DNA of 50,526 nt from Candidatus Methanomethylophilaceae archaeon (GTDB lineage: Archaea > Thermoplasmatota > Thermoplasmata > Methanomassiliicoccales > Methanomethylophilaceae). Under the pieces are notes generated by a model. The model was given only the letters and a program-made list of their open reading frames with translations. It was not told where the DNA came from and ran no database searches. Each line of letters begins with the position of its first letter. Within the stretch, counting starts at the first letter, position 1. The stretch lies in NCBI GenBank assembly GCA_944320495.1, contig CALUHR010000014.1, positions 1-50,526 of the forward strand, given 5' to 3'. Position numbers and translations under genes: made by a program. Of the stretch, positions 5,982 to 36,947 are shown in pieces.

Positions 5982-8900
5982 TCGGAAGAAGTCCGACAGC
6001 TTGCACTTCTTGACCTTGTCGTTGTTGAAGACGGAGTCCATCGACATCTCCAGGAGCTCCACGCGCTCCTTGGTGTACTCGTCGAGCCCGTACTTCTCGC
6101 CGATGGTCTTGGAGATCTCCAGGTACTTCTTGACGGACGCCTCGTGGACGGTCAGCGTCAGCGCGTTGCCGCACTTGGTGCACTTCCCGGCCAGGGGCAT
6201 GCGCCTGTACTTCTCGCCGCACTTGGTGCATCTGACGGTCTGGGTGGAGAAGCTCCTCAGGTTCCCGATCATGTCCGGGAGGAAGTGCTTGTTCAGCACC
6301 CTGCGGGCGACGTCCTGCTCGTTGACGGCGCGGATCTTCTTCCCGAGCATGAGCTGGGCGTCCATCTTGTCCATCATGGTCTCCAGGGTGGTGTAGGCGG
6401 AGTACTTCGGACCCTCCGAGATGTCGCGGGTGTCGTGCGTGAAGCCCAGGTGCTCGTACTGGTCAGGGGTGCCGATCCTCCCCGCGATGAGGTCCATGAT
6501 CTTCTCGATCTCCTTCGGCTCCTTCATGTCCATCGCGGCGCGGTAGAGCTCGATGGGGTAGTGCCTGAGGCAGTCCACGTTGTGGGCCTCCTTGTCGATC
6601 TCGTTGGGGTCCAGCCTCGTCGTGAGGACCAGCGGCGCATCCATCTGGCCGCCCCTGCGGTCCGGGAGGAAGGTCTTGGAGAAGTTCAGCAGGCCGTCCA
6701 TGGCCAGGATGAGACAGTCCTCGTCGCCGTCGCAGTTCCTCCTCTTGGCGGCGTGGAAGAACGGGTGGCCGTAGCATCCGCGGACGTCGGCGTAGCCGAT
6801 GATCCTGCACAGGATGCATCCGGACGTGTGGGGCGCCAGGCCGAACACGATGTGGCCGATGAGGTCGAAGCGGTTCTGGACGTTGTAGTAGCGGGGCAGA
6901 TGGTACAGCCTCTCGAGCTCGTCGTCCAGGAACCTCGCGACCTTAACCAGGTAGTCCCCGCAGTCCTTGGCCGGTATGACGTCCTGCACCCTCAGCTCGC
7001 AGATCTGCTCGGGGTCCGTGAGCGGGTCGCCGTTCCAGTCGTGGGTGTAGCCGATCTCGTGGGCCTTCTCGATGCTCAGGCCGATCTCCCTGGGCTTGAA
7101 GTGGGTGATGGGGATGTCGGTCATGTCGAACCTGACCGTCCCGTCCTTGAAGCAGCTGATGCCGTTCTTCTGTCTCAGGATGCCCTTCTCGACGGCCTCG
7201 CAGGTCTTGGTCTTGGAGATGAGTGCGTCGAGGCACTTCAGCTCCGACGGGGGCCTCTCGCCGACCTGCTCGCAGGCGGCCTTGAACTCCTCCTCCAGGG
7301 GGATGCCGAGGGGCGCGGGGCCCATGTTGCCGAAGTCGTTCTGCCTCGGGACGTACTCCGTATGGGAGCCGCAGACCCTGCACCAGTTGCGGAAGGTGTA
7401 GTTCCTGCAGACGGGGCACAGCCTGTTGCCCACGTCCACGGTGACCTCCGGCTTGCCGCCCTTGCGGGATGCGGCGGAGGACCTGGCGGCGGCGATGGCG
7501 CTGTTCATCTCCCTGCCGGCGTCCGCGTCCTTGCCGACGGGGAACAGGGAATGGACCTTGGGGGTCATCTCGCGCTCCTTCGCCTTCTCCGGACGGCCCA
7601 TCCTGGTGCCGATGCGGGTCATGGCGCGGGCGCGGACCTCGTATCCGGTGGCCCTGCTGATGGCCTCCAGGGTGCTGGACCCCTCGAGTTCCGGTCCGGG
7701 TTCGAGACGGTCTCCGGCGACCTTCACGCCGAGGCAGTCCAGCATGGGCATGGAGTACACCTCGTCGATTACCAGGCGCCCGTCCCTGACGACGTGGAGG
7801 GCGCAGAGGTCCTCCAGCATGCGCTTCTGGACGGGGTCGTTGGCGACCGATAGGTTGACGCCGTCGTAGGACCCGGTGGCCAGCACGTGCTCCCTGAGGG
7901 ACCTGATCCTGTCCAGCTCCCAGTCGGACCAGAACAGGTTGAACTTGGGGTGGAGGGGCACGCCCATCGTGGCGCACATCTCCTTGGCGCGCTCGTAGGT
8001 GGGGTCGCGCCAGTCGGCCGGGAGCTCCCCCTTCTCCTTCAGCTCGAGCTCGTGCCACTCTATCGGGTATCCGCAGGGGACGAGAGTGTGGTTGTTCTCG
8101 CAGAACTCGCCGAAGGGGACGAGGATCTCGCCGTTGTCCACGATCTCGGAGATCTGGTCGTGGATCTCGATGGCCTGCTTGGCCGTGCCCACGTAGACGA
8201 GGTCGCCGTTCTTCAGCAGGACCGTCGGCCCCTCGAGCTGGTCGCAGGGCGTGACGACGGAGGCCTTGCCGGGCCTCTCGATCTTGAGCTGGGTGCCGAT
8301 GGCCATGAACTCGTCCATCACGTACATGGCGGGGACGCTGTAGGCCAGGGACGCCAGCCCGGAGGTGCGCGCCCTGCCGTATCTGAGCCTGAAGCCACCG
8401 ACGGCGCAGGGGTGCCCGAATATGGGGCGTCCGGCGACGATGTCCATGAGGTACTTCTCCTTGGGCTCGACCCTCTTGGGGGCGTCGCTGTTGGCGTCGG
8501 GCTTCTTGTCCGCCTTGTGGGCGTCCAGGTACTTGCCGATGAACTCCCATCCGGTCATGCCGAGCTTGTCGACGTGCTTCTTCAGCTTGGAGGCCTTCTG
8601 GCACATCCCCTCGGCGATGACCAGGCAGGCGCCTCCCCTGACGCGGTTGGTCTCGATCCTGGGGAGGTCCCTGAAGCCGGAGATCTCCATCGTCTCGGTG
8701 CCCTCGCCGTCGACGCAGACGGGGCAGTTCCTCACGATGAGGTCTATCTCCTCGGACGTCGGGGTGTACTGCAGGTGCTGGCACTGCTTGTAGAGGGGGA
8801 TCTCCTCGTCGAACCTGGCGATCTCGCCCTCGGTGGGGATGTACTTTCCTATGCCGAGCTCGGTCCTGACGACGTCCGCGATGAGGACGCTCATGGCCTG

Positions 8901-9371
8901 TCCGGTCCCCCCTGCGGCGCGGATGGGTCCGGCGAAGATCAGGTCCACGTAGGTGGAGCCGTCGGAGTTCCTGCCGATGCGCGTGTCCGCTATGCCCTCG
9001 AGCGGGGCGACCAGGATCCCCTCGGTGAGGACGGCGAGACCGACCCTCACGGCCCTGTCCAGGGCCTTCTCCTGGCTCTCGGCGGGGCGCTTGGCCATCT
9101 CCCTGGCGACCATCAGGGCCACGAGCTCGCGGTTCCCGAGCTCGGCCGTGAGGCGCCTGATGTCCTCGGCGACGCCCTCGACGTGGTAGTCCGCCAGGAG
9201 CTTCTCCACACGGGACGCGAGGTCCTCCGCCTGGGGGATCTCCACGTCGGTCATGGGGTCGAACCCCATGGACCTGGCCTTCCTGGCTATGTCGTAGCAC
9301 TCCTCGTTCTTCCTCGAGAGCTCCGAGAAGTACGCCTGCATCTCCTCGCTGCAGGCGGGGCCGCCGGTCAT
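5982..9371 (-). CDS. polC: DNA polymerase D large subunit DP2 (1129 aa if CGA at 5984-5982 is a stop)
   Basis: GPIRAAGGT, GRPIF, GGFRLRYGRARTSG, RIGTRMGRPEKA, AKRRNCDGDED, LTTRLDP.EID.EAHN and the C-terminal Zn site CTKC..CTKC. The acidic-hydrophobic tail KLSDFF is followed by CGA. The standard code reads on to 4770. Confidence 0.96.
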
Positions 9372-21422: not shown

Positions 21423-21624
21423 GGGCGGTGAATGGACGTTCCAGATAAATCAGATTGCCAGGGGTCGGGTTTAACGCCGTTGACGGGGTCATCGGGGACC
21501 GACGCTTCGAGGACAAATGTGCCAGACGTCGGGGAAGGGGCCTCCGGGGGGTGTCGGAGGGGCGCGGGGGCCATTGCATCCCCTTAAATACGCACATCGT
21601 GTGGCATATGGAGAGGGATAAGGG

Positions 21625-21792
21625 ATGCCCGGAAGCGCTCCCAGAAGGAGCTCCATAGACCGCTTCGACGCCAGCGTCGAGGAGGGTACATTCGGAGGCT
21701 ACGAGGCCTTCGGCGTCTACAGCGAGGACGCCGGAAGCGGAAGGTCCTCCGAGTACGAGATTTTCATAGTGAGCACAGGGGCCGAGTTCCGA
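21625..21792 (+). CDS. Small hypothetical protein or gene fragment (55 aa, ends at CGA)
   Basis: Strongly host-like codon usage from about 21655 to 21789 that stops at an in-frame CGA; standard-code end is 21858. The start is uncertain and may be frameshifted from ATG 21608. Confidence 0.4.
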
Positions 21793-21940
21793 TCCCGGTG
21801 CTCCGATCGGCAGAAGGGTCCTCCATCCCGCCCGTTTTCAATAACAATCATAACATAAGTTACAAAGATAACAGCCAGCAGTTTATCATTATCCACCGGC
21901 TCATCCGTTCCGGAGGCCATGAGCCTCCGGGAATGATAGT

Positions 21941-22408
21941 ATGAAGACAGGATGGAAGGTGGCTGTGGCCATCGTGGCGGTCGTCGTGATCGTCGCGGTC
22001 ATCGCCGCAGTCGGGTCCGGCGACGATTCGCCGGAGGTCCGCTACGATTACGAGATCGAGGTGGCCGATTTGTTCACCTCGTCGAGCGGCTATGAGGAGA
22101 CGCCCTCGCCGGGCAATCAGTACGTCATCGTCACATGGACCGTGGCCAACGACTCCTACGGGGACGGGTTCCACACGAACGACCTGTTCTTCCAGGCCAA
22201 GGTCGTGGCCGGAGGGGTTGCGTACGGCACGAGCATCGACATGTACACGCATCCGGGATACCTCCTCGGTGATATCCTGGAGGGCGAGAGGGCGACGTTC
22301 GTCTACGTCTATGAGGTGCCAGCGGGCATTCCCGCCGAGGACCTTGATGTGCAGGTGCACTACGCGGACTTCGATCCGCCGTCCATGGAGAGGGACACGT
22401 CCCTCCGA
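21941..22408 (+). CDS. N-terminally membrane-anchored DUF4352-like (Ig-fold) protein
   Basis: Hydrophobic N-terminal helix, then P.PGNQYVIVTWTVAN and FVYVYEVP. CGA at 22406 lies two codons before TGA (22412-22414). A GGGGCC-GCGA-GGCCCC hairpin follows at 22421. Confidence 0.7.
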
Positions 22409-22441
22409 GGCTGAAACCCAGGGGCCGCGAGGCCCCGCTAT

Positions 22442-22867
22442 ATGCTGGTGTGGAGCGGCCCAGAGTCCCGGAAGAGGGCGGAGGCGGCCTGCATCTTGAG
22501 GCGTTTGAGCTCCGGCCTCGGGACGCCTGTGGACGATATGAACTGCCTATCCTTCCCGATGATGCGCAGCCCGAAGGGCGAGGTGCTGAGATCATGCTGT
22601 GGTCGCACAGCGAGGGCACGGTGTCTATACCGGCGGAAGTGCCCGTGCCGGCATGCTAGGGTATCTGTTCGGAGGGCAGATCTGTTGGTAATTGTGGACG
22701 AGGACACGCTCGGGTCCGAGCTGTTCAATGGGCCCAGACACTTCGAGAGTATTTGCCCGGATTTGAGGCAGATCAGGCTCCGTGTGGAGAGGAACAGAAG
22801 AGGTGGCTGCGTGCAGCTGCCCGGTCTGGAGAGGACGATATCTGGCAGGATGTCCTCAGACATTTGA
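22442..22867 (+). CDS. Hypothetical Cys/Arg-rich protein
   Basis: 141-aa ORF with many Arg codons and no CGA; convergent with the next gene. I recognise no homology. Confidence 0.35.
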   Translation: MLVWSGPESRKRAEAACILRRLSSGLGTPVDDMNCLSFPMMRSPKGEVLRSCCGRTARARCLYRRKCPCRHARVSVRRADLLVIVDEDTLGSELFNGPRHFESICPDLRQIRLRVERNRRGGCVQLPGLERTISGRMSSDI

Positions 22868-23071
22868 GCGGGTGTCGGGTCCGAGGGCAGGACGATCATC
22901 CTGAGGTTCCAGCGAATCGATCGACAGCTCGACGGAGAATCTGGCGCCGCAGGGGCAGGAATGGCATTCGAGATACGAGGAGACGGAGGGCTCTGTGTAC
23001 TTGAGAGAGGATGGGTCTAGCAGATGCCCGCATACAGGGCATTTGGATACGATAAACGAATCAAATGTCAT
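22856..23071 (-). CDS. Small zinc-ribbon protein
   Basis: CPVC...CHSCPC motif and an AT-rich upstream region; 71 aa. Confidence 0.55.
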   Translation of the reverse strand: MTFDSFIVSKCPVCGHLLDPSSLKYTEPSVSSYLECHSCPCGARFSVELSIDSLEPQDDRPALGPDTRSNV

Positions 23072-23337
23072 ATGATTGTTATATTGATATCGAATAGATA
23101 ATATTCACTCTAAATCGGTTATGTCAAATGCTGATATCCAATGTTGCCGAGTTAGAGTTTTAATGCTGTATATTGTACTTTTTTGTAATTCATATTTAAG
23201 TAGATTCTATGCTTTACGTCTAATAAAAGTTGTTTCAGAATATTTTTTGGTAACCTAAAAGAATTATTGAAATCGATATTGATTTTTGATTCCTAGAAAA
23301 CCGGCAGTTTAATACGATCTGCTTTGAAGTTACAATT

Positions 23338-23799
23338 ATGACCAAAATTGGCGAGTACGTTGGTGTCGAGCAGATTGTAGAAGAGGCAGGAGTCAAAAGT
23401 GCTGCAGGTTTGCAATGTGGTATTCTAGTAAACGACGATGACAAGAGAACTACACTAATCATAGCGTTGCCTGGAGTGGGCACTCCTAGATATCCAAACT
23501 ACTGGGATCAGAAAAAAATCGGTGTTCTCCACTACTGTGGTACAGACAAGGGGCAGTCCAAGTCTATTCCGAAACAAAACATCAATTCGAGATTGAACTC
23601 TGCAGTCAATACAGGGGTGTATCCGATACACGTGTACATTCGGCATCCGAATCACGTGTTTCGGTACATGGGTGAATTCATTCGGTGCAGAGAGTACGAT
23701 GAAGAGTTGGAAAACGGGGGCAAGATCATCTATCGTTTCGGGCTGATATCGAAGAATATCGATGTAATTGCTCCAATATTGAACAGTTATTTCAATCGA
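23338..23799 (+). CDS. Stand-alone SRA/PUA-like modified-base-binding domain (ScoMcrA/HNH-associated type; 153 aa if CGA is a stop)
   Basis: YPNYW....GVLHYCG..KG......N..L......PIHVY......FRYMGEF resembles SRA-like domains fused to HNH restriction nucleases. Standard-code end is 23907, overlapping vsr. Confidence 0.6.
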
Positions 23800-23872
23800 A
23801 ATTTCTCTACAATAGAGAAAGGCATAGAATCTGAATTTGGAAATACTCAAGAATTCATCATTAAGTCGAGAT

Positions 23873-24337
23873 ATGTCAAACAGGCCCGCAGATCCCCCAA
23901 TGTCTGATGGCGTCCGGAAGTGTATGAGATCCAACAGGTCCAAGGGAACAACCCCTGAGCTCAGAGTCAGAAGCGCTCTTCGTGAAGCAGGATATCCTGG
24001 ATACAGGCTGAATTGGAAAAAGGCTCCTGGTAAGCCAGATATATGCTATCCTGGAAGAAAAGTAGCGATATTTGTCAATGGATGCTTCTGGCACAGATGC
24101 CCGCACTGCAATCTCCCACTGCCAAAACACAATTCCGAATATTGGATCCCTAAGTTAGAACGTAATGTGGAGCGTGACCGCGAGCAGAGGCTTGAGCTCA
24201 ATAGTATGGGTTGGACAGTTGTTGACATTTGGGAGTGCGAGCTAAAGAGGGACTTTGAAGGGTCTGTGAATCATGCACTAGATGCTCTTCGTGAGGCGGA
24301 TTCAGGTATCAAATCATCTAAATCGTATTCTCAGTAA
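23873..24337 (+). CDS. vsr: Very short patch repair endonuclease
   Basis: MRSNRSKGTTPE, GKPDI, AIFVNGCFWHRCP and YWIPKLERNVERD motifs. Likely start is ATG 23873 (ORF track gives 23837). Confidence 0.93.
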   Translation: MSNRPADPPMSDGVRKCMRSNRSKGTTPELRVRSALREAGYPGYRLNWKKAPGKPDICYPGRKVAIFVNGCFWHRCPHCNLPLPKHNSEYWIPKLERNVERDREQRLELNSMGWTVVDIWECELKRDFEGSVNHALDALREADSGIKSSKSYSQ

Positions 24338-24379
24338 AGTAGTCTTAAGCCATCCTATAACATATTAGACAAAGATCAG

Positions 24380-25816
24380 ATGAGGGAAGTACAGTCTCCG
24401 CCAACTGCTGCGGCACTCATGGAATCCACTAGGTCCATTGGATATTCGTTTGACTCTGCAGTTGCGGATATTGTTGACAACAGCATAAGCGCTAATGCTA
24501 TGCATGTATGGATTAGGACGCTTCCTGACGATGACCCCTACCTGTCAATTCTAGACGATGGGGACGGCATGGACTCACAGGAGCTGTGCGAGGCGATGAG
24601 GTACGGCGTTAATCCCAATCTTGTCCGCGATCCAAACGACCTCGGGCGCTTCGGATTAGGGATGAAAATGGCATCCTTGTCTCAATGCAGGCGTCTAACC
24701 GTGGTATCTAAGACTAAAGACTCTCTTTCTGCGTGCAGATGGGATCTGGACCGCGTCATTGAGACAGATGAATGGACTTTACAGATTCTATCGGAAGAGG
24801 ATATCGTGGATGTTCCGATGTATGATGATCTCAAGGATCTCGATCATGGAACCCTGGTGGTCTGGCAGGATCTGGACAAGCTGAAGGAACGCTCAATCGA
24901 TATGCAGGATCTTATGACTGAAACTATCGCATCGTGCAGAAGTCATCTGAGTCTAGTCTTCCACAGATTTCTTGACTCGACGTACGGCGGTCGTTTGGAG
25001 ATGTTCATGAACGGCAGTGAGATAATGCCGTTGGACCCATTTCTTTCAAGAAACACGAAGGTTGCTCGTCTTCCGGAGCAGACAATGGAAATACAGGGGC
25101 AAACAGTGGTCATTAGACCGTTTGTCCTTCCTCCAGAGTCTACTCTGTCCAAGAGGGATGTAGAGCTAATGGGGGGAATGAAACGTAACCTTCAGGGGTT
25201 CTGGGTGTACAGAAACAAGAGACTCATAATTCCTGGAACGTGGTTCAGGCTTACTGGTAGCAAGGAGCTGACAAAGCTGGCTAGAGTGATGATTGACATA
25301 CCAAACACTCTTGACTCAATTTGGGATATTGATGTGAAGAAGTCATCTGCAATTGTTCCGGCACCGTTCCGTAGGGATTTTGAGAGTATTTTGGATCAGA
25401 TTCTGACGAAAAGTGAACGCAAGTACACCTACAGAGGTCGCAAGGCAAATGATGATTCCAAGACGTTCTTCTGGGACAAGATCGAAAAGAACGGTTCGTT
25501 ATCATATCAGGTAAATCTTAGTCATCCGCTGATTAGGCAGGGGATGGATCAGCTTGACGAAGAGTCCCGCGCCTGGTTTGAGAGAATAATAGCTCTTCTT
25601 GGCAGATCTTTGCCACTTGAGGATATCTTTGCATCTTTGGCAGGCAGATCTGAATGGCATTTAGGTGAGACGCGCGAGGAGACGGATCAGATCATTGGTA
25701 TGGGAATAGGTCTTTTGGAAATGGGCCTAAAGCTGGAGGATCTCATCATGATGGAGCCCTTCATTGGAAACAAGAAGGCACTGGATGCGTTAAGGAGATA
25801 CGAAAGGGGAGTATAA
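24380..25816 (+). CDS. mzaB: MORC/MutL-like GHKL ATPase (MzaB-like)
   Basis: AVADIVDNSI, ILDDG.GM, DLGRFGLGMKMASLS, QGFWVYRNKRLI and LARVMID motifs. Confidence 0.88.
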   Translation: MREVQSPPTAAALMESTRSIGYSFDSAVADIVDNSISANAMHVWIRTLPDDDPYLSILDDGDGMDSQELCEAMRYGVNPNLVRDPNDLGRFGLGMKMASLSQCRRLTVVSKTKDSLSACRWDLDRVIETDEWTLQILSEEDIVDVPMYDDLKDLDHGTLVVWQDLDKLKERSIDMQDLMTETIASCRSHLSLVFHRFLDSTYGGRLEMFMNGSEIMPLDPFLSRNTKVARLPEQTMEIQGQTVVIRPFVLPPESTLSKRDVELMGGMKRNLQGFWVYRNKRLIIPGTWFRLTGSKELTKLARVMIDIPNTLDSIWDIDVKKSSAIVPAPFRRDFESILDQILTKSERKYTYRGRKANDDSKTFFWDKIEKNGSLSYQVNLSHPLIRQGMDQLDEESRAWFERIIALLGRSLPLEDIFASLAGRSEWHLGETREETDQIIGMGIGLLEMGLKLEDLIMMEPFIGNKKALDALRRYERGV

Positions 25817-28602
25817 TGATGGACCAGAGCAAGATAGAGAATACAATCACAATCGTTCGTGCGCTAATTAATCAAAAATTCGGAGACGAGACTCCTTCTG
25901 AGTCAGACATTGTCAAGACGGTGATGAGTGTCAAAGATCTTGCAAATCTCACGGACGAGGAGGCAGAGGAGACGTCACGTCAGATTCTCAGCATCATGGG
26001 ACACTACATGGATGTGGGGGTCATGTTATCTTCTGAGCATAAGTCTTGGTACTACTCTCGTACCAAAGATGTGGATTTGCGTTTTACAAATCGTAATTTG
26101 AAATATCAGGATCAATACCGTCATCTTCCTCCTAAGGTAATTACTACTGTAGATCAGGTAACTAGCAGTATCATGGATCAGATAGCAGATCCAACCCAGG
26201 TTGGATCAAAACGTCTAGGACTGGTCATGGGGGATGTTCAGTCTGGAAAAACGAATACCTATACCACCCTGTGCTGTAAGGCGGCGGACATGGGTTATCG
26301 TGTGATCATTCTTCTAACAGGGACTCTTGAGATTCTACGCAAGCAGACGCAGGCGAGGCTGGATGAGGGTCTTGTAGGAAAGGACAGTGCCGCTTTCATA
26401 AAAAAGAAGGATAAGACCATCGGTGTAGGATACATCGATACCACACCAAGCATGGTTGTTTTTACCTCAACCGAAGGTGATTTCAATTCAAAGAAGGCCA
26501 CTGATCTGAATATCAGTGTGGACAATCTGAATGTTCCCCTGCTCCTGGTACTGAAGAAAAATAGCAAGGTTCTCAAGAATCTGAACCAATGGCTATCAGT
26601 CAACACCAGCAAAAGGATAGAGGCTCCTTTGCTTCTTATCGATGACGAGGCAGATAATGCATCGATAGACACATCTGGCAATGATCAAGAAGCTACTGCG
26701 GTGAACAGCTCTATCCGTGACATCTTAGGCATGTTTGTGACTTCCACGTACGTAGCCTTTACAGCCACTCCTTTCGCGAATATCTTTATTGATCCGGAAG
26801 CAGATGACGACCTGTATCCTCGGCATTTCATATACTGTCTCTCATCGCCGGACAATTACATAGGGCCTCAGTCGATGTATTCAGAATCGGGCAGATACAG
26901 ATCAATTCTGAGAATAATACCTGTGCTACCGGCGAGTGAGACTAGCAAGGGAGGTCTTGAGGAGCTTCCTTATGACCACTCCAAGGACTATGTGTTACAG
27001 AGCATCCCTCCGTCTCTGGAAGAAGCAATCAACTGTTTTCTTCTTTCCTGCGCGGTCAGGGATATCCGGGGTAATGAGCGGAATCATATGTCCATGCTTG
27101 TTAACATGAGCAGATTTACAAACGTCCAGAACTCAGTAAAGGAGTTGGTATACGACTATGTATACAATGTAAAACAGGCATTGGAGGCATATAGTTCTCT
27201 CCCAGAAAAAGAGGCACTCAAACACCGGACTATTAGTGGTCTAAAGCTTACATGGGACAGAGAATATTCTCACTTAGGTTACGAATGGCCAGTTATACAG
27301 CATCAGCTTTTCCAATCTGTAAAGCCGATAGATGTCAGAGCAGTTAATCAGACAAACGGTCCGAAGAATCTGAACTATGCAGATGCGTCTGATGGTCTCA
27401 GAGTAATAGCAGTTGGAGGAAACAGTCTTTCAAGAGGGCTCACGCTAGAAGGGTTGTGTGTCAGCTACTTCTACCGTCGTTCACAGACGTACGATACATT
27501 GATGCAGATGGGTCGCTGGTTCGGATACAGGGATGGTTATGACGATCTGTGCAGAGTCTGGATGACTGAGGAGAGCATAGAATGGTACGAAGGGATATGT
27601 GAAGCCACCGAGGAACTGAAATGGGAATTCAGGGTGATGTCGGACAGGGGCATGACGCCATCTGATTTCGGATTCCGTGTACGCAACAATGTGACCGGAC
27701 TTCTGATAACCGCTCGCAACAAGATGAGGTCTGCAGGCGAGAAGTACATTACAAAAAGAATAGATGCAACACCACTGTGGACATCCAGCATATATTATGA
27801 TGACGAGCACGTCAACAATAACAACAAGGCGGTCACAGAGCTCATAACGTGCATCGACAAAACAATTCCGAGATTTTACAATAAATCTACTGGAAATTGG
27901 GTATGGAGGAGAGTTCCTACTGAAGATATAGTGAAATTTCTGGACACATACATATTTCCAGAGGAAGAGAATGTGCTATTCGACAAGGAAGCAATTCTTG
28001 AAACTTTCAGCTCAGGAAAGTTTCCTCGCGAATGGGATGTAGCCATTCAGCACGGAGATAGCAACAGGACCTACGAAATCGAAGGAATCCAATTGGATCG
28101 TCCGATTAGATTGTCTGTTCGTAACAATGTGGTTATCAACAGAAGCAACGAAGGAGTTCTACGTTTCAAGAGTGCAGCACTTATGAGTTCTTCCAATATG
28201 CGTGAAGGAATATACACCATCAAAGACGGAGAGGAGGTGTATGATAGCAATAAAGTCGCTGAGCTTGAAAAGAACTATCGCAATCTTGTAAGAGATGAGA
28301 AGATACGTGAGGGCAAGGATCCGGACAAGGTTGCAGTTCCTCCCAAAGCGTATCTGATGACCACAGAGCGTCGTCCTATTCTGCTAATATATCCCATAGA
28401 AGTGAATGGAGACTGCCAGGGGGATGATGCAAAAGAAATAGCTGCTGTTCTTGGCGGGCTGCCCACAATAGGCGTGGCACTGGGATTCCCTGAAGTGGAG
28501 AATGCAAAGTCTGATGAGGCGTATGTCATACGTTACAAAACCACTGCTGTGTACAACAAACTTGGAGACAATCCAGATCTTGACGAGGAGGTGTACCAGT
28601 GA
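25816..28602 (+). CDS. mzaC: Z1-domain SF2-helicase-like endonuclease (MzaC-like)
   Basis: GLVMGDVQSGKT, IDDEADNAS, YVAFTATPFAN, HMSMLVN, GGNSLSRGLTLEGL and DTLMQMGRWFGYR motifs. Confidence 0.92.
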   Translation: MMDQSKIENTITIVRALINQKFGDETPSESDIVKTVMSVKDLANLTDEEAEETSRQILSIMGHYMDVGVMLSSEHKSWYYSRTKDVDLRFTNRNLKYQDQYRHLPPKVITTVDQVTSSIMDQIADPTQVGSKRLGLVMGDVQSGKTNTYTTLCCKAADMGYRVIILLTGTLEILRKQTQARLDEGLVGKDSAAFIKKKDKTIGVGYIDTTPSMVVFTSTEGDFNSKKATDLNISVDNLNVPLLLVLKKNSKVLKNLNQWLSVNTSKRIEAPLLLIDDEADNASIDTSGNDQEATAVNSSIRDILGMFVTSTYVAFTATPFANIFIDPEADDDLYPRHFIYCLSSPDNYIGPQSMYSESGRYRSILRIIPVLPASETSKGGLEELPYDHSKDYVLQSIPPSLEEAINCFLLSCAVRDIRGNERNHMSMLVNMSRFTNVQNSVKELVYDYVYNVKQALEAYSSLPEKEALKHRTISGLKLTWDREYSHLGYEWPVIQHQLFQSVKPIDVRAVNQTNGPKNLNYADASDGLRVIAVGGNSLSRGLTLEGLCVSYFYRRSQTYDTLMQMGRWFGYRDGYDDLCRVWMTEESIEWYEGICEATEELKWEFRVMSDRGMTPSDFGFRVRNNVTGLLITARNKMRSAGEKYITKRIDATPLWTSSIYYDDEHVNNNNKAVTELITCIDKTIPRFYNKSTGNWVWRRVPTEDIVKFLDTYIFPEEENVLFDKEAILETFSSGKFPREWDVAIQHGDSNRTYEIEGIQLDRPIRLSVRNNVVINRSNEGVLRFKSAALMSSSNMREGIYTIKDGEEVYDSNKVAELEKNYRNLVRDEKIREGKDPDKVAVPPKAYLMTTERRPILLIYPIEVNGDCQGDDAKEIAAVLGGLPTIGVALGFPEVENAKSDEAYVIRYKTTAVYNKLGDNPDLDEEVYQ

Positions 28603-29501
28603 GGGACATTGTGGCTGAGAGGCTCGGAGATAGTTTCTATCTTGCAGGATCACATCCGCTTAGATGGAGCTACAACAAGTCTCGTACCGCACTGATCCTT
28701 CAGACAGATGAAGAGCCAGATGTTCCACAGCGCTCTTCCAAGGCGGTAGCCCTACGCAAGTGGAGACAGGCAGATGGCAGATGGGCCATCGCATTCATTC
28801 TCATCGATGACAGCTACTCGGAGCAATTCAGATATTTCTGCGAGGATGTAGTGGAGTCTAGCAGATCCGTTCCTCTTGAGAAGGGCGCCAGCTTTGCATA
28901 CGGCAGATTCTCGTTATGGATGCGCATGTTTCGTCCGGTAGGAGGAAAGCTCTCTGAGGAGTCCATTCGCGGGCTTATGGGAGAAATATTCGCCATGCAA
29001 CGTGTTCTCATACCGAGATATGGCGAGATTGCCGTTCTCAAGGCATGGATGAATGCGCGTCGCGGAAAGCAGGACTTCGTGATGGAAGACAGCTGGTACG
29101 AGGTTAAATCCATCATGGAGGGGTCAGCAGGTGTCACTATAACATCGTTCGAGCAACTTGATAGGGATGATTCAGGAGGTCTTGTGGTTGTGCAGCTAAG
29201 AAAGACTAGTCCTGAATCTCCATTGGGTACGAACATAAACAAACTTATCCGCGAGTTTATAGACGGTCTGGAGTCAGCCGAGTCCAGAGATATTATGCTA
29301 GACACGCTGGAGCTGGCTGGATATAGCTATACGGATGAATACAACAGCCTGTGCTTCGATTGCTTGTCCCTGACTTTGTATGCGGTAGATGGCGATTTCC
29401 CTCGCATCAGGCGCTCTCATCTTGACGAGGGCATAGTGTGTGGTAGCTACGAGATATCCCTTGATTCTATCTCAGAGTGGCGGGTGGAAAGATGGAGTTG
29501 A
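28599..29501 (+). CDS. mzaD: PD-(D/E)XK DUF4420 protein (MzaD-like)
   Basis: RGLMGE, W......KQDF......YEVKS and ITSFEQL motifs; GTGA overlap with mzaC. Confidence 0.88.
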   Translation: MRDIVAERLGDSFYLAGSHPLRWSYNKSRTALILQTDEEPDVPQRSSKAVALRKWRQADGRWAIAFILIDDSYSEQFRYFCEDVVESSRSVPLEKGASFAYGRFSLWMRMFRPVGGKLSEESIRGLMGEIFAMQRVLIPRYGEIAVLKAWMNARRGKQDFVMEDSWYEVKSIMEGSAGVTITSFEQLDRDDSGGLVVVQLRKTSPESPLGTNINKLIREFIDGLESAESRDIMLDTLELAGYSYTDEYNSLCFDCLSLTLYAVDGDFPRIRRSHLDEGIVCGSYEISLDSISEWRVERWS

Positions 29502-31561
29502 ATGAGTACAGATCAGAGACGCTCCAGGACATCCGTCTGGGTGCTGTAGCGAACTCCAATTTCAGAAGAATTGAGTTTGTTGACCATGTGATGAGGATTC
29601 TTCAGGAGTCAGAGGAGGTTGATGACTACACCCTCTGCTATTATGACGGGATTATAGGATCACGCGGGAAGAGGGTGGAGATAGACGGGTATGATTTCGA
29701 TGATTACGATGGAACACTGACCCTCATTGTGTGTAGCTTTAACGGGACTGATATTCCAGGCGTCAGATTAACCAAGACGGATATCGATGGGATGGTCGAA
29801 AGGGCTAAGCGTTTCGCAGAGGGATCCATAGATGGTGTTGCAGAGGACAGCATCGAGGAAAGCGAGCAAGCGTATGAGCTCGCCAGATATATACGGCTGC
29901 TTAGTGAACAGGAGAAGATCAATAGGTACCGCATTCTTGTTCTATCAGACCTTGAGAAGAGCGATCGCATCAAGACGCTGGAGGTAGGTGAGATCGATTC
30001 AAAGGAAGTCCTGCTCAGAGTATGGGATATATCCAATCTGTTTGACCTGGAGGTGTCCCGGAGAGGCTTCGAGGATATCGAGATAGATCTCAAGGATTTT
30101 GGTGTGGATGGTATTCCATGCCTCAGAGCGTGCAGTTCAGGGGGCGAATCAGGATATGACGCATATCTCTGCGCGATTCCGGGAAGGCTTCTTTCCGACC
30201 TCTACGGAAAGTTCGGTAGTAGACTCATGGAGTCAAATGTCAGATCATTTCTGAAGCTTCAAACAAAGACCAACAAGGCAATCCGTTCAACCATTCTTAA
30301 AGAGCCTGAGATGTTTTTCGCATACAACAATGGGATCACAACCACTGCGACAGACATCTGCATTGACGAAACGCCCTCCGGCAAGGTCATTCGCGGATTC
30401 ACCGCACTCCAGATAGTCAATGGCGGGCAGACCACTGCCAGTATCTACACGGTGGGTAAGTCCAGGGACAAGCCAGATCTGGATCAGATATTCGTTCCCA
30501 TGAAGATCACGGTGATCTCCAGGGAGAGAGCAGAGGAAGTGGTTCCGCAGATCTCGCGCAGCGCAAATACGCAGAATAAGGTCAGTGAGGCGGATTTCTT
30601 CTCCAACAGCAAGTTTCACAAGAAGATGGAGGCGTTATCCAGAAGTGAGATGGCTCCACAGAGGCCAGGCATCCCGTACACCACAAGATGGTACTACGAG
30701 CGCACGCGTGGACAGTATCAACAGGATATCAACTCCAAAACTGGTACTGCCCTCTCGAAGTTCAAGATGGAGTATCCCAAGAGTCAGGTGTTCACCAAGA
30801 CTGATTTATCAAAGTATCGGAACAGCTATGATATGAAACCTCATGTTGTTAGCAGAGGGGCTCAATATAGTCTTGTCGAGTTCTCAAAGAGTATCGACGA
30901 GTCCCATATGGACAGCATCAATAGCCATTATTTCCACGAGACGGTAGCCTTGGCAATCTTGTTCCGTCGTATCCAAGACATGGTTTCGGATCAACCTTGG
31001 TACAACGGAGGCTACAGGGCGCAGATTGTTACATACACGATGGCCAAGCTTTCGCAGATGATTGGCGATATGGGAGGGGCTTTGGATCTGGAAAAAATCT
31101 GGAGCATGCAGGAGATTCCTTCTGAGCTTGAGAGGCAGCTGATTCCGATAATGGACTTGGTGAACACATCTATACTTATGGACAAGCGTGAGGAGAATGT
31201 TGCTCAGTGGTGTAAGAAGCCAGCTTGCTGGGAGTGTGTGAAAGGAAGGGCTATAGACCCGCTTCCAGAGCTCAGAACTTGTCTCATTTCAGAGGCCCGC
31301 TCAAAGTGGGATCGGAAGGTGGCAATTCGCAAGCAGAAGGATTCGGATCTGGTTCATGCGCTGATAGATGTTGTGAACTATGGTTCAGGTGCATGGGAGA
31401 AAGCAATGGAGTGGGGGGAGGAGCACGACTCTCTCAGCTGGGAGGACAAGGACCTTCTGAAAAAGGCTATGAGGTGTGACAAAAAGCGTCCGACGGAGAG
31501 GGAGGCGGTCGCCGTTATGAAGGTTCTGGAGAGACTCAGGCAGGACGGCTTTTCCAGATGA
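29492..31561 (+). CDS. mzaE: AIPR family protein (MzaE-like)
   Basis: LMESNVRSFL, FFAYNNGIT, QIVNGGQTTAS, ISRSANTQNKV and WYYERTRGQY motifs. Start is ATG 29492 (or 29477). Confidence 0.92.
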   Translation: MELNEYRSETLQDIRLGAVANSNFRRIEFVDHVMRILQESEEVDDYTLCYYDGIIGSRGKRVEIDGYDFDDYDGTLTLIVCSFNGTDIPGVRLTKTDIDGMVERAKRFAEGSIDGVAEDSIEESEQAYELARYIRLLSEQEKINRYRILVLSDLEKSDRIKTLEVGEIDSKEVLLRVWDISNLFDLEVSRRGFEDIEIDLKDFGVDGIPCLRACSSGGESGYDAYLCAIPGRLLSDLYGKFGSRLMESNVRSFLKLQTKTNKAIRSTILKEPEMFFAYNNGITTTATDICIDETPSGKVIRGFTALQIVNGGQTTASIYTVGKSRDKPDLDQIFVPMKITVISRERAEEVVPQISRSANTQNKVSEADFFSNSKFHKKMEALSRSEMAPQRPGIPYTTRWYYERTRGQYQQDINSKTGTALSKFKMEYPKSQVFTKTDLSKYRNSYDMKPHVVSRGAQYSLVEFSKSIDESHMDSINSHYFHETVALAILFRRIQDMVSDQPWYNGGYRAQIVTYTMAKLSQMIGDMGGALDLEKIWSMQEIPSELERQLIPIMDLVNTSILMDKREENVAQWCKKPACWECVKGRAIDPLPELRTCLISEARSKWDRKVAIRKQKDSDLVHALIDVVNYGSGAWEKAMEWGEEHDSLSWEDKDLLKKAMRCDKKRPTEREAVAVMKVLERLRQDGFSR

Positions 31562-32530
31562 TCAGATCGCCTTGACGATCTTCTTAGCCATCATCTCGAC
31601 TACGGGCACCGTTATAGAGTTGCCAATTTGCATGTACTGGTGACTTCTGGCCATATTTGAAGGGAACTGGATTCCTGTGAGGCCCTGAAATCCAAGACAC
31701 TCGTCGATAGTCAGTTTTCTGATGCCCCAGTCATCACGGATCATTGGTACGTTGTGCCCTCCACCGCCCATATTCGCTGTCAGTGCCGGGCATACTCCGC
31801 TCTTGTTCTCACGGACGTAGTACCTGCGATACTGGTAGACAACGCCCTGTTTTACAATGGACTCATTAAACTTGTCATAGAGCTTTGTATCCCAGGGGCG
31901 GATATAGTACGATTCATCCGCTTTTTCATCCGTGTGCAAGTATTCAGTGATCGGATCGTGTTTTTTCTTGACAGGTGGTTTGATGCATGGATTGCATCTA
32001 TTTTTGTCAAGTGCCACAATGTAAATGCGATTTCTATTGTGGGGAATGCTACAATAGTCCTTGGAGTTGAGGATGTACTGACTGTAGCTGTATCCTCTAG
32101 ATTCTATCTCGTGCCTTATGCGGGCTATCGTGTTACCGTTGTCAATGGTGTTTAGGCGACTAACATTCTCCAGAAATAGAGCTCTAGGCTTCCTTCCGTC
32201 ATCGGTAAGCTCGTCTAAGATGCGAGTTATCTCGAAAAACATGAGACCACGGCCCCTTGGATCGTCGAATCCTAATTGCATTCCCGCTTGTGAGAACGGC
32301 TGGCATGGGAATCCTCCGATCACAATATCCACGTCGTCCTGTATGGAGTTAGAATGTAGATTCACGATATCCTCCTCAAAAAGCGGGAAATCATGTGAGT
32401 TGCGATAGGTCTCGCAGGCATAGTGATCCTTTTCATTGGCGAGGCATATGTCGCATCCAGCATTGTTGAATGCTGTGCAAATGCCACCTATGCCAGCGAA
32501 CAGGCTAAGGACGCTGGGGCGGGAGTTCAT
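31562..32530 (-). CDS. dcm: DNA (cytosine-5)-methyltransferase
   Basis: Motif I SLFAGIGG, IV GGFPCQPFS, VI ENV and X QIGNS. Its stop abuts the AIPR stop in TGATCA (31559-31564). Confidence 0.95.
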   Translation of the reverse strand: MNSRPSVLSLFAGIGGICTAFNNAGCDICLANEKDHYACETYRNSHDFPLFEEDIVNLHSNSIQDDVDIVIGGFPCQPFSQAGMQLGFDDPRGRGLMFFEITRILDELTDDGRKPRALFLENVSRLNTIDNGNTIARIRHEIESRGYSYSQYILNSKDYCSIPHNRNRIYIVALDKNRCNPCIKPPVKKKHDPITEYLHTDEKADESYYIRPWDTKLYDKFNESIVKQGVVYQYRRYYVRENKSGVCPALTANMGGGGHNVPMIRDDWGIRKLTIDECLGFQGLTGIQFPSNMARSHQYMQIGNSITVPVVEMMAKKIVKAI

Positions 32531-32770
32531 GTTGTGTTACGACTCAAGCATACTAGTTTAATAAGGGATGCGTTCAACCAGAGACCGAGAATTTTAGTGT
32601 CGAGATCTTCGACAAGTCCGACTATTTCGCCAGATCAACTCTGAGTCGTCGCTTCGAGGCAAGTCCTGAGCAGGCTCAGGACCTCCGAATCCCATTACCG
32701 CACAAAGCGGAATTTCGGTTGCAAGGTCATGGAACAGGAATTACAACCTGGTTCGATGGACGTTGAAGAG

Positions 32771-33550
32771 TCAAGTCTCCGACATTTTTACCCCTGCAGT
32801 TTTCTCAAACTCACGGTTGTGAATCTGGAGATATTCGGGATTGGGAGCAATTTTCCTAACATGCAGAGTGGTGAATCCGTCGCACATGGTTCTGTAGATT
32901 TCGCGATTCATGTTTTCCTTCAGAACTGGAGCATAATGGATGCAGCGATCCTCATCCACAGTCATGAGGTGTCTGTCGAAGAGCGAATCGTGGAATGTGT
33001 TCAGGCAGAGGACGTTGTCAAGGCTGGTCTTCTGCTCATCTGTAGCGCATTGGCTCCATGGGACGATGTGGCTGCATCTCAGAATCTGCCGTTCCTTGAT
33101 GCCGGTGACGCTGCATCTGCTTCCAGCTTCGACGAGTAGTGTTCTGCGAAGGGAATCCTGTCCAATGCGTTGCCTGACCTGTCTGATCACATCTCCACCG
33201 TTAACGACCATGGGATCGTATTGGTCCTCCAGGAAGGTCATTTCCCTATAGTATCCGTTATTTTCCAATATGTTTGAGGCTAGTGTGAACATTTCGACTG
33301 GGTCATCCTGGAACATCTTCCAGATGCGTTCTACTTTGGGTCCTCCATGAGAAAAGCCCTTGCGCCCTGATTTCAGATATTCCTTATCGCATGCCGCATA
33401 ATTGCCCCATCTAAAATTGATGGAGCCTTCAGTACGGCCGGTTATTTCCATAAAGATGCGAATATCCTCTTTCTGTGTGCCTTGGGGATCGAGATACATG
33501 GCAAGAGCCAGAATCATCTCATCATCGGACCACGAGTCTCCATCAGCCAT
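32771..33550 (-). CDS. HNH endonuclease (HNH_2) with an N-terminal helical domain
   Basis: RIGQ..LR..LL.....CSVTG.....LRCSHIVPW.........DNVLCLNTFHDSLFDRHL; N-terminus WSDDEMILAL..Y. Confidence 0.88.
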   Translation of the reverse strand: MADGDSWSDDEMILALAMYLDPQGTQKEDIRIFMEITGRTEGSINFRWGNYAACDKEYLKSGRKGFSHGGPKVERIWKMFQDDPVEMFTLASNILENNGYYREMTFLEDQYDPMVVNGGDVIRQVRQRIGQDSLRRTLLVEAGSRCSVTGIKERQILRCSHIVPWSQCATDEQKTSLDNVLCLNTFHDSLFDRHLMTVDEDRCIHYAPVLKENMNREIYRTMCDGFTTLHVRKIAPNPEYLQIHNREFEKTAGVKMSET

Positions 33551-33655
33551 GATTTCTAATAAGGTGGGATACAGAATAACCTTCCGGACTTTGTGCTTCG
33601 ATTCGGGAAGCCGCTATTCCATAGTTACTATACAGGACAGCCATAGGGGGTCGAG

Positions 33656-35929
33656 GTGCGTCCGTTGTTCAAACGCAGCAGTTCCGGACCCGATTCCCGT
33701 CTCGAGTCCGCGATCGAGGAGCTCGGTTCCCTGTGCTCATCGGGCAAGTTCGCCGACCCGGTGGAGGTCCAGGCCCTTCTGAGGAAGCACTCGACGGCGA
33801 GGGAGGAGGCCGAGTCCATCCGCAGGAGGCTCCTCGTCCGTCTTCTCGACAGGAGGCTCCTGGGACGGTGCAGGGTCCTGATCGAGCTCTATGACGGTCT
33901 CGAGGGAGCGGCCCACTCGCACAACCTGGACGTCGCACGTTCCATCCTACCGGGAATCAGGAGGTCGGTGGGGGAGATAGACGGGCATCGGCTCGACGGA
34001 CAGCAGCTCACGGCGATAGGGATGGACGTCAGCACGAGGCTGGTCATCGCAGGTGCGGGGACCGGCAAGACCACGACGGTGGTCGGACTCGTGAAGCACC
34101 TCGTGCAATCCGGTAGGGCATCCCCCGAGGAGGTCCTGGTCCTGTCGTTCACGAACGCGACGGTCGACGACCTCTCGTCGCGCATCATGGAGGCCGTCGG
34201 CATACGTGCCGACGTCTGCACGTTCCACAGGTTGGGCATGAGGATACTGGCGTCGTGCGACGGCAAGGTCCCCTTCGTCTCCAGAATAGACCTCCCGTCC
34301 TTCGTCGGGGATCGCATCCTCGAGCTCGCCTCCGACAGTTCCTACCTCCGCGACCTGGACAGCTACCTCAACTTCGATACCCGCTACCAGGTGGACGAGA
34401 GGGACTTCAAGGACAGCAGCGACTACGAGCGCTACATCTCCGAGAACCCGCTGTACACCATGGACGGCAGGAAGGTCAAGAGCCTCGGGGAGGCGGACAT
34501 CGCCAACTGGCTGATCGCCCATGGCATCCGCTTCGAGTACGAGTCCCCGTATCCGATTGACACGCGCAAATCGGAGTACGCTCAATACCGTCCGGACTTC
34601 CACATCTCCGGCATGGACGTCTACATCGAGTACTTCGGCATAGGCCGTGACGGTTCCGTCGCACCGTTCATGAGGTCTCGCCACGGGGACGATCCCTCCG
34701 AGGAGTATCGCAAGGGAATGGAATGGAAGTTCGAGCTGCACGCGACGAACGGTACGAGGCTCATAGCCCTGTACTCGTACCAGCGCAGCGAGGGGACCCT
34801 CCTGGACGACCTGGAGTCGGCCGTCCGCGGTTCGGGCATACCGATACAAGAAAGGGACCCGACGGTCACGCTGTCCAGGCTGAGGGAGACGGACTCGATC
34901 GTCCTGGGCCGCATCTCCCGCGAGTTCTCCACGGCGATTACGCTCATCGAGGGCAGGGGTCGCGGGTTCGACCTCTCGTCCCTGCAGGGATCCGACCGTC
35001 GTGAGAGCAGGATCCTGCAGAGGGCATGCAGACTGGTCGAGCCCATATACGACGCGTACCGGCAGGAGCTGCAGATGAGAGGGGAGATCGACTTCGAGGA
35101 CATGCTGAACCTCGCGGCCGAGAGGGTGTCTTCCGGGATGTACCGTCACCACCTCAGGTACGTCATCGTGGACGAGTACCAGGACATGTCCCGTTCCAGG
35201 TACGACCTGCTCAGGTCGCTCAGGGAGTCCGGGGGGTTCAAGCTGTTCTGCGTGGGGGACGACTGGCAGAGCATCTACCGCTTCAACGGGAGCGATGTCG
35301 GGTACATCCTGGACTTCGAGAGGTACTGGGGGCCATCGGAGGTCCTCCGCATCGAGAGGACGTACCGGTTCTCAGGCGAACTGCTCCGCATCAGCAACGC
35401 GTTCATGAACTCGTCCCCGAACCAGGTCCACAAGGAGCTGGTCGGCGACCCCGGGTCGGACTCCGTGCTCAGGACCATCACAATGAGGATGGTATCCGAG
35501 GCTGTCTCCGGGATACCTCCGGACGAGAGCATCCTGATGCTGGGCAGGTTCCGTCACGACGTCGTGTCCCTGGAGGGCGGCGGGTTCCAATGGAGGCCCT
35601 GTCCCGACGGCAGGACGCTGACGGTGACCCCGGAGTCGGACCCGTCCCGCAGGATCGTGTTCATGACGATACACGGGTCGAAGGGCATGCAGGCGGACCA
35701 CGTGTTCGTCCTGAACAACAGGACTGGTCCGGGCGGGTTCCCGGACACCCGTGGGGAATCGGCGCTCATCAGGTCGCTCCTCGACGGTAGCGGTTCCAAG
35801 GCTGACGACGAACGCAGGCTCTTCTACGTGGCGATGACACGTGCGCGCAAGGCGACGTATCTCGTGGTCCCCGAGGACGGCGGATCTGCGTTCGTGAAGG
35901 AGTGCAGAGAGCTGTCGCGGCGTCGCCGA
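33656..35929 (+). CDS. UvrD/REP-family helicase (helicase IV/HelD-like) with an inserted nuclease-like domain
   Basis: AGAGTGKTTT, VDEYQD, VGDDWQSIYRFNG, TYRF, TIHGSKG and ERRLFYVAMTRA motifs; insert KS.GE..IANWL...YRPDF...YIEYFG. The first in-frame CGA is at 35927; standard TGA end is 35947. Confidence 0.9.
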
Positions 35930-35947
35930 CGGAGGCCCCGACCATGA
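35865..35947 (+). repeat. 83-bp imperfect direct repeat, copy 1 (3' end of the helicase)
   Basis: Aligns without gaps to 36865-36947 with 12 mismatches by my count, mostly transitions. Confidence 0.85.
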
Positions 35948-36190
35948 CAAATGCAGCGAACGGATCGCTTGGTCCGCGTATGGGTGCCGACATGAGGGAT
36001 GGTGATTCCAAGGAGTTGCCGTACGGTCGGGTCCTCGTCGCCCATTCGTTTCAAGATGGTAGTTCAGACATGAACTTCGAATCTAAGACCGTGCATGTAT
36101 ACTTGCACTGACGGTTCGGTTCATAATACAGGGACAGAGGTGAGGGGTTGCCGGCTGGATTCCGACCTCCAGCCGGCAGGAGGAAGCCAA

Positions 36191-36277
36191 ATGAAGCTTA
36201 ACTTCCTCAACAGGAGGATATACCTCCGGGTCTCTGTGACCATCATTGGTCTGGTCATAGAGGTCGCCGTTGAGTGA
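36191..36277 (+). CDS. Candidate 28-aa hydrophobic peptide (MKLNFLNRRIYLRVSVTIIGLVIEVAVE)
   Basis: AGGAGGA Shine-Dalgarno at suitable spacing, preceded by an 11-bp perfect hairpin (36149-36178); ends in TGATCA. Confidence 0.45.
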   Translation: MKLNFLNRRIYLRVSVTIIGLVIEVAVE

Positions 36278-36864
36278 TCAACGGCCAAACATAGGCCTCG
36301 TCGAGGCCGCGGTCCTGTTACGGCAGGGCCGACATAGTTCTGAGGAAGGGATCACGCTCGGGATATTTAAATGTTTTTTTAGCTATCGATTGCTATATCC
36401 GATTATTTTAACAAAACGGGTCATTGGCCTCGGTTGTGAAGCTATCGATTTGCATCCTCCCCATCGACTCACACATGCATCCGAAGATGAACCTGATGCG
36501 GATCGGTACCCAGTCTTTGATTCTCCAGGGCGAGTCAGTGCATCCGCTGCCGGGGTCGTGCCCGCACACGCGTACGCACATGACCGCACGTCTGTCAGTT
36601 CGGGGACAGGTTCCTCGCATCTATGTCGAGGAGCTCCAGATGGCGGAGGTGCTCTTCGTCCCAGCTCCCGCTCTTTTGATGCCATGAATCCCCGATTCGG
36701 GAGGAACGGAACCGGATGATTCGTAGATGCCACGGCATTTCTTCGGCACATCGTCGATGTACCATCCATGGCGGAGCTCCGAGATTGTGACCTGTCCAGG
36801 CGTTTCAGCATCAGCGGGACGTCCGGCGCTCTCATGTTCCCGTCCATGCGCCGCGACACATCCC

Positions 36865-36947
36865 TGGTCCACGGGGACGGCGGGTCCGTGTTCGTGAAGG
36901 GGTGCAGAGAACTGTCGCGGTGTCGCCGGCGGAGGTCCCGGTCATGA
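36865..36947 (+). repeat. 83-bp imperfect direct repeat, copy 2
   Basis: Offset exactly 1000 bp from copy 1. Confidence 0.85.

Follow-up and report, generated by a model that had tools for sequence, protein, structure and literature searches.

A candidate defense island without internal CGA codons in a Methanomethylophilaceae archaeon that appears to use CGA as a stop

Differences in the genetic code act as barriers to viruses and gene transfer, both in recoded Escherichia coli strains and in natural stop-codon-recoded bacteria and their phages. The reassignment of a sense codon to stop is found in organelles (NCBI tables 2, 22, and 23; AGA/AGG, TCA, and TTA), and horizontally acquired DNA drifts towards the codon usage of its host, a process known as amelioration. 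Here, we describe an AT-rich island in the genome of a chicken-gut methanogen, an archaeon of the family Methanomethylophilaceae, order Methanomassiliicoccales (G000, the genome studied; other G numbers denote relatives, and C denotes a contig). This genome has 1.77 Mb in 14 contigs with approximately 62% GC, and the window is the entire 50.5-kb contig C14. The island is a candidate methylation-linked defense cluster of the Mza type that contains no internal CGA codon, and it resides in a host where CGA behaves like a stop codon. We consider it probable that hosts lacking a usable Arg CGA supplied the gene pool in which this horizontally mobile Mza cluster without sense CGA evolved and from which it was acquired.

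As in the known code-based barriers, the host and its mobilome share a nonstandard reading of one codon, and genes from standard-code donors would be mistranslated. The present case differs in that a sense codon would have become a stop, which would truncate incoming genes rather than extending them or changing their sense, and in that the barrier is a proposed one. With the organelle reassignments it shares a sense codon that is gone from genes and turns up at gene ends; unlike the organelles, G000 is a free-living archaeon that has kept the cognate tRNA gene. As in amelioration, the codon content of a foreign island is shaped by the host, but here the GC content at third codon positions (GC3) has not been ameliorated while one codon is wholly absent, which is the mark of an all-or-none filter and not of gradual drift. 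What is new is a control in which homologous clusters come from hosts that differ in their CGA status, together with provirus data. One mobile cluster is followed through six hosts, and its CGA content follows the codon use of each of them. The island is thereby a line of evidence for the proposed CGA-stop code that is independent of gene calling and of the host core genes.

The gene content of the island resembles that of Mza, a candidate anti-phage system of PADLOC (MzaA to MzaE, namely, a methyltransferase, a MutL-like ATPase, a Z1 helicase-like protein, a DUF4420 protein, and an AIPR protein), bacterial homologues of which are widespread. The GC content per 300 bp is 32 to 53% within approximately 23.1 to 33.6 kb and 60 to 68% on either side, with sharp edges. 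The features of the island are as follows.

23100..33600, no strand: AT-rich island, approximately 47% GC against 62% GC in the host; a GC trough of 10.5 kb
23338..23799, + strand: stand-alone SRA-fold protein of 153 aa, ending at CGA 23797-23799; assigned with AlphaFold/Foldseek, no Pfam match
23867..23869, + strand: CGA, in the vsr frame only if translation starts at the upstream TTG 23837; ahead of ATG 23873 and ATG 23900
23873..24337, + strand: Vsr very-short-patch repair endonuclease (PF03852, E 7e-21; PADLOC Vsr)
24380..25816, + strand: MzaB, ATPase with a HATPase_c_3 (MutL/GHKL-type) domain (PDLC02204, E 4.5e-68; PF13589, E 6e-31); 0 CGA
25816..28602, + strand: MzaC, Z1-domain helicase-like protein of 928 aa (PDLC02205, E 6e-127; PF10593, E 2e-80); 0 CGA among 54 Arg codons
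28599..29501, + strand: MzaD, DUF4420 protein, putative PD-(D/E)XK nuclease (PDLC02206, E 8e-15; PF14390); 0 CGA
29477..31561, + strand: MzaE, AIPR protein (PDLC02207, E 5e-78; PF10592); 0 CGA
31562..32530, - strand: C-5 cytosine DNA methyltransferase of the Dcm type (PF00145, E 2e-61; PADLOC MTase_II); 0 CGA
32771..33550, - strand: HNH endonuclease (PF13391; PADLOC HNH, E 3e-35); 0 CGA

The genes matched by the MzaB, MzaC, MzaD, and MzaE models are adjacent, abut or overlap one another, and stand in the same operon order as in PADLOC Mza. On the opposite strand, the gene of the Dcm-type methylase directly adjoins that of MzaE; the top PADLOC model for the methylase is MTase_II, and no MzaA was found among the 25 best models listed. 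Judged from these matches, the island is a candidate methylation-linked defense cluster of the Mza type accompanied by Vsr, HNH, and a predicted SRA-fold reader. It differs from known Mza systems in representing an archaeal sublineage at 45 to 60% identity and in its association with Vsr, HNH, and an SRA-fold protein that stands alone, and its role in defense is putative.

The SRA-fold protein gave no match in a Pfam search, the SRA family included. Its AlphaFold model (predicted local distance difference test [pLDDT] score of 77) matched SUVH5 SRA, AspBHI, LpnPI, TagI, MspJI, and UHRF1 in Foldseek, with E values of 1.6e-6 to 1e-3 and TM scores of 0.5 to 0.6; AspBHI, LpnPI, TagI, and MspJI are modification-dependent nucleases. 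The predicted fold agrees with the label "SRA-like" given to this gene in an earlier note that had been made from the sequence alone, and it suggests that the protein is likely a reader of 5-methylcytosine.

The eight island genes comprise 3,288 codons, 234 of which encode Arg: 46 CGC, 14 CGG, 47 CGT, 77 AGA, 50 AGG, and no CGA. The earlier note had put this at about 3,300 codons without an internal CGA, in genes with relaxed codon usage where CGT is frequent, CGG is present, and many codons end in A or T. Both statements are borne out, A-ending codons having a share of 27% in the seven other four-fold codon boxes. The lack of CGA is specific to the reading frame, since CGA is common out of frame: the coding strands contain 35 and 97 (132 together) in the two other frames, and the totals per island strand are 142 and 137. 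These frame-specific counts refute avoidance at the DNA level, whereby CGA, TCGA, or CpG would be depleted by restriction or by mutation of cytosines methylated by the island Dcm. The island does encode a cytosine methylase, Vsr, and nucleases, but CGT, CGC, and CGG are also freely used, and we give this explanation practically no chance.

In the standard-code open reading frames (ORFs) of the island, CGA occurs in frame only twice, at 23797 and 23867. The first is codon 154 of a 189-codon ORF (23338-23907, + strand). Ending the SRA-fold gene at this codon abolishes its overlap with vsr, as had been proposed from the sequence, and the five SRA-fold homologues (P0159 to P0163, 156 to 158 aa) end 3 to 4 residues past the same position. 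Annotation with the standard code would thus misplace gene ends, making the SRA-fold gene 36 codons too long and creating a false overlap with vsr. Island DNA is present in four chicken-gut metagenome runs from a single study, and contigs from two chicken-gut runs have an identical CGA 23797; one of these runs may be the source sample. The second CGA lies in the spacer between the SRA-fold gene and vsr and is intergenic as judged from the alignment of Vsr homologues, which begins at residue 9 counted from ATG 23873.

The absence of CGA from the island exceeds chance. In the nearest CGA-sense host, CGA accounts for 5.6% of the Arg codons of the homologous cluster; at this share, the probability of observing 0 CGA among 234 Arg codons is 1e-6. 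The shares of two other archaeal copies and of bacteria bring it down to 1e-12 to 1e-16, and at the lowest host-core rate it is 0.014. Ordinary codon bias or chance would require that the family or the donors rarely use CGA, with no code change involved. CGA is indeed rare in many prokaryotes, and in sense-CGA relatives from the family it makes up only 1.6 to 1.8% of core Arg codons. Among bacterial Z1 homologues, 79 of 80 contain CGA, at a median of 12% of Arg codons, and a single one (L132, 30% GC) has none. We nevertheless regard codon bias as very improbable, given the probabilities above, the position of the sole in-frame CGA exactly at a C-terminus, and a split that follows the host code in nine further comparisons.

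For a matched control, homologous clusters were taken from five other genomes, and their hosts were classed separately from core genes only. The hosts and clusters compared with the island are as follows.

G144: CGA-free host of the same genus; cluster with 0 CGA in 2,741 codons
G126: CGA-stop host of the same genus; cluster with 0 internal CGA
G176: host with sense CGA (1.8% of core Arg codons); cluster with 10 to 11 CGA
G254: host with sense CGA (5% of core Arg codons); cluster with 25 CGA
G226: host with sense CGA (16% of core Arg codons); cluster with 15 to 19 CGA

Over these six clusters, the presence of CGA matches the code of the host. When pooled, the same-genus copies from three genomes contain 0 CGA in 545 Arg codons, versus 50 in 434 in the three sense-CGA hosts (Fisher p = 4e-19). 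The clusters in sense-CGA hosts have CGA at 6 to 16% of their Arg codons, which in G176 is above the level of the host core, and the absence seen in the island is therefore not shared by its homologues from standard-code hosts. At Arg columns where the outgroup copies have CGA, the same-genus copies use AGG, CGC, AGA, CGT, or CGG, so that every other Arg codon occupies these sites, a replacement of the kind that the earlier note had proposed to look for in a comparison with the nearest homologues. From copy to copy, the synonymous codons of conserved Arg sites have been completely reshuffled, which points to a long CGA-free evolution and not to recent editing. Among the more distant AT-rich Z1 paralogues, those of four hosts from the two CGA-free genera have no CGA, whereas two sense-CGA hosts have 2 and 4, a repeat of the split by host. 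The CGA content of these mobile genes thus tracks the use of the codon by the host. The Mza cluster of G254 (L234, G254:C12:80001-100000) has, besides its 25 CGA, a GC content of 29 to 37% per gene in a host with 59% GC, a gap in composition that is extreme for an intact six-gene cluster.

The use of CGA by the host was explored with an up/down coding test, in which an in-frame codon is located after 40 strongly coding codons and the coding signal downstream of it is scored. ORFs were selected by GC3; this filter was adopted because iterative selection drew in shadow ORFs in high-GC genomes. Genome-wide, the coding signal of G000 is lost after an in-frame CGA in 89% of 265 cases, against 3 to 14% for eleven control codons. 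In a model with CGA as a fourth stop, approximately 388 of the 1,798 high-scoring ORFs of G000 end at CGA; scoring candidate fourth stops by the number of ORFs that they end did not discriminate between candidates. The genes in the window that bear on the host rule are as follows.

5982..9371, - strand: large subunit of DNA polymerase D (DP2), the reference case for the host CGA rule
21941..22408, + strand: gene of host GC left of the island, ended by CGA; TGA at the same codon in the orthologue of G013
33701..35929, + strand: UvrD-like helicase of host-like GC right of the island, ended by CGA six codons ahead of the next TGA

The syntenic 22 kb to the left of the island contains four host genes that end at CGA, and for each of them G013 or G004 has TGA at the matching codon or nearly so. 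The DP2 gene reads "...KLSDFF" and then CGA in G000 and two sister species, whereas 25 relatives end it at this codon with a standard stop, in most cases TGA, and an open frame of approximately 400 codons continues past this CGA. Replacement of TGA by CGA at exact orthologous stop positions was observed in G000, G018, G009, G126, and others. Genome comparison gives good support for a stop-like role of CGA in the host. A literature search returned CGA as a stop only as a passing suggestion for two unrelated vent archaea and nothing for Methanomassiliicoccales: the KACI preprint (10.64898/2026.04.02.715157) raises it as a mere possibility for two assemblies of hydrothermal-vent archaea, together with CGG as Trp.

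Sampled DNA of the relatives was put through the up/down coding test to assign their CGA status. CGA is stop-like in G018, G009, G013, G004, and G126 (21/21), as well as in G063 of a second genus; it is nearly absent in G008, G015, G144, G136, and G065; and it is an ordinary, often rare, sense codon in G176, G172, G157, G048, G254, G226, G019, and G024. The codon usage of G000 is archaeal in style, with AGG as the main Arg codon and ATA in use. AGG is the dominant Arg codon in all sampled members of the family other than G065 (L371 to L374), which belongs to the second genus; in this relative the main Arg codon is CGG (220 of 452 central Arg codons), and CGA is near zero there as well. Within the window, the tetraether lipid synthase homologue at 14649-16280 is 72 to 74% identical to proteins of "Candidatus Methanomethylophilaceae archaeon" and approximately 65% identical to those of Methanoplasma.

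The near absence of CGA from G008, G015, G144, and G136, whether as a sense codon or at gene ends, shows that the loss of the sense codon is wider than its use at gene ends. This would be expected if CGA were unassigned or very slowly decoded, stalling ribosomes and being avoided for the sake of efficiency, in which case the barrier to gene transfer would be weak. A kept tRNA-Arg(UCG) gene and the occurrence of some CGAs with coding signal on both sides also agree with stalling. The CGAs that stand in place of TGA at exact orthologous stops, with long open frames after them, fit termination instead, and we consider stalling unlikely.

The rest of the mobile DNA was examined for the same pattern. 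Throughout the low-GC regions of G000, every long ORF is either without in-frame CGA or has it close to an end, and the few short ORFs that contain several CGAs look spurious. In these regions, neither CGA-truncated recent arrivals or remnants nor any intact gene with an internal CGA was found. In the integrase ORFs of G000, CGA is confined to positions ahead of the likely start or to the C-terminal end. A search of G000 for terminases (PF03354, PF03237) found none, and terminase is present in 13 of 61 genus relatives. Proviruses were therefore counted over 24 kb around each of ten terminase genes of the genus, using standard stop-to-stop ORFs. These ten regions contain no CGA with coding signal on both sides, seven that are terminal-like, and one that is ambiguous, with internal counts of 185 for CGT, 170 for AGA, and 97 for CGG; this supplies the check on CGA use in proviruses that the earlier note had called for, here in relatives of the genus. 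In G113, a PHROGs-confirmed provirus head module (L392:420-16154, equal to G113:C1:1010420-1026154) of the head-tailed type encodes a terminase, a portal, a head morphogenesis protein, a protease, a major head protein, an adaptor, and a 1,725-aa protein. It has a host-like GC content of 64% and 0 CGA in 4,849 codons, 312 of them Arg codons. The ORFs of the G113 and G136 modules were called with CGA as a stop, and this zero is partly built in, whereas the count over the ten terminase regions is unbiased. The resident mobilome, comprising the island, its same-genus homologues, the integrases, and the proviruses, is adapted to the altered code.

Of the 261 species genomes that represent the order, six contain the cluster: three belong to the same genus, one to a different genus within the family, and two to another family. 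The nearest proteins form a 95% cluster, followed by a series at 45 to 60% identity, in which the clade of G144 stands at 59 to 60%; bacterial Z1 homologues are at most 44% identical to the island. One named cluster inside the clade is labeled Methanomassiliicoccaceae and Methanomethylophilaceae, and the named and genome-resolved members of the cluster lineage all belong to Methanomassiliicoccales. Among the matches listed from a metagenome scan with generic patterns, homologues were at most 43% identical and apparently bacterial. A Z1 tree that includes 20 sampled bacterial sequences unites these database proteins with five of the six archaeal copies in a clade separate from the bacteria, and the copy of G226 groups with bacteria. 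The tree is at odds with host taxonomy, given that G176, from another genus, is nested between same-genus copies. Moreover, the island copies are 50 to 60% identical, versus 82 to 100% for the C-terminus of DP2 within the genus. The low identity of the island copies against this conserved core, together with the conflict in the Z1 tree, indicates that the cluster moves horizontally inside the order. The GC trough and the occurrence in so few species likewise mark the island as foreign and mobile.

The earlier note had left two origins side by side, a donor with the same code or a purge of CGA. This pair is supported, with the same-code donor more likely than a purge following arrival. The GC3 of the island is 0.44 to 0.59, and G/C-ending codons dominate the usage of the host; a same-code donor is favored because GC3 is unameliorated and yet CGA is exactly zero. 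The same-genus relatives of the island are likewise AT-rich and CGA-free, and the copies in sense-CGA hosts carry 10 to 25. In a purge, a standard-code donor would have delivered a dozen or more CGAs, each later replaced by selection. The deeper Z1 branches (G254 and bacteria) do carry CGA, which means that the archaeal lineage lost its CGAs at some point, and the retained tRNA-Arg(UCG) could permit leaky expression while codons were being replaced. The little amelioration speaks against a purge, as do the two other same-genus copies, which are CGA-free at 50 to 60% identity, and their fully shuffled Arg codons. Furthermore, because 13 to 34 CGAs are expected from outside copies, a six-gene system would be nonfunctional on arrival under a strict stop, leaving nothing to select. 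Purge after arrival is, on balance, quite improbable.

Acquisition from a same-code pool can be put as a mechanism. The island would have evolved within, and come from, a pool confined to hosts where CGA is unusable as an Arg codon. In such hosts CGA is gone from genes, and in G000 roughly a fifth of them end at it. A CGA-bearing copy would be cut short or poorly translated there, and only CGA-free copies would persist. Selection through translation termination would then be the cause of the pattern, and the donor would be a same-code relative and not an outsider. It is plausible that the code limits the inflow of genes from standard-code organisms. A stronger form of this idea, in which the change of CGA splits the archaeal mobilome by code into a closed CGA-free pool and standard-code multigene systems that are dead on arrival, is tentative, and we lean against it. 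A hint for the barrier comes from a single case, in that the sole archaeal copy that groups with bacteria (G226) sits in a standard-code host. Adaptation of the mobilome to the code is a precondition for any code-based barrier and makes the idea testable; if the split of the mobilome is true, free-living cells would here be naturally isolated in genetic terms through the change of a sense codon into a stop.

Several observations weigh against these proposals. The three CGA-free copies share one genus and are not independent samples, and the control covers six genomes, with the closest homologues (the 95% cluster P0001 and most of the archaeal clade, P0002 to P0059) lying outside it. As for the transfer barrier, the cluster shows no visibly lower frequency in the CGA-free genus (3 of 62 species) than in the remainder of the order. 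No empty site that would date the arrival was found, and the contigs of G018, the closest relative, end at both flanks. Termination at CGA is proposed from the comparison of sequences. The cognate tRNA has not been lost: of 19 genus genomes searched, 12 still have a gene for tRNA-Arg(UCG) (G000:C13:413317-413390, L338, and L340 to L351 in relatives). These genes are 79 to 100% identical and structurally conserved. Their anticodon stem shows compensatory changes and is reduced to 4 bp by a constant mismatch (A.A or C.A) at position 31-39. Genome-wide, 24 in-frame CGAs have coding signal on both sides, including one in the gene of archaeal release factor 1 (aRF1). Since the tRNA persists, CGA is possibly still read in part as Arg; some CGAs may thus still be decoded, and the block may leak. 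The in-frame CGA of the sole aRF1 gene lies at G000:C2:86934 (inside L001), with strong coding signal on either side, and the protein retains the NIKS and YxCxxxF motifs as judged by eye.

The surroundings of the island are variable. Synteny with G013, G004, G126, and G009 is lost from 21.4 to 37 kb, and the contigs of G018 end at approximately 22.26 and 37.16 kb. The stretch 21400-37000 looks like a variable hot spot for defense genes. No tRNA, integrase, or flanking direct repeats were found at the island borders, and in the contigs of the four chicken-gut runs the two flanks are nowhere joined without the island between them. A 71-codon ORF (22856-23071, - strand) without a Pfam match lies at the left margin of the GC trough and encodes two CxxC-like pairs, a possible zinc ribbon. 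Accessory genes of host-like GC that end at CGA comprise the UvrD-like helicase (33701-35929), a Schlafen/AlbA_2-HATPase_c_4 protein (39148-40626), and an AAA_14/DUF4143 ATPase (48477-49742).

Elsewhere in G000, a clustered regularly interspaced short palindromic repeat (CRISPR) array (G000:C6:66299-66850) with an AT-rich leader on its left comprises nine spacers of 32 nt and a repeat of 29 nt (GTGCTCCCCGCGAATGCGGGGGTGATCC plus one base). For six of the nine spacers, a search of IMG/VR gave no exact match; for two, 61 genus genomes were searched with up to 3 mismatches allowed, and no protospacer turned up. At position 27489 of the island, other contigs in the four chicken-gut runs match only rightward, over the region of the conserved Z1 motif, and diverge leftward; other Z1-bearing organisms in the same samples probably share the stretch to the right of this position.

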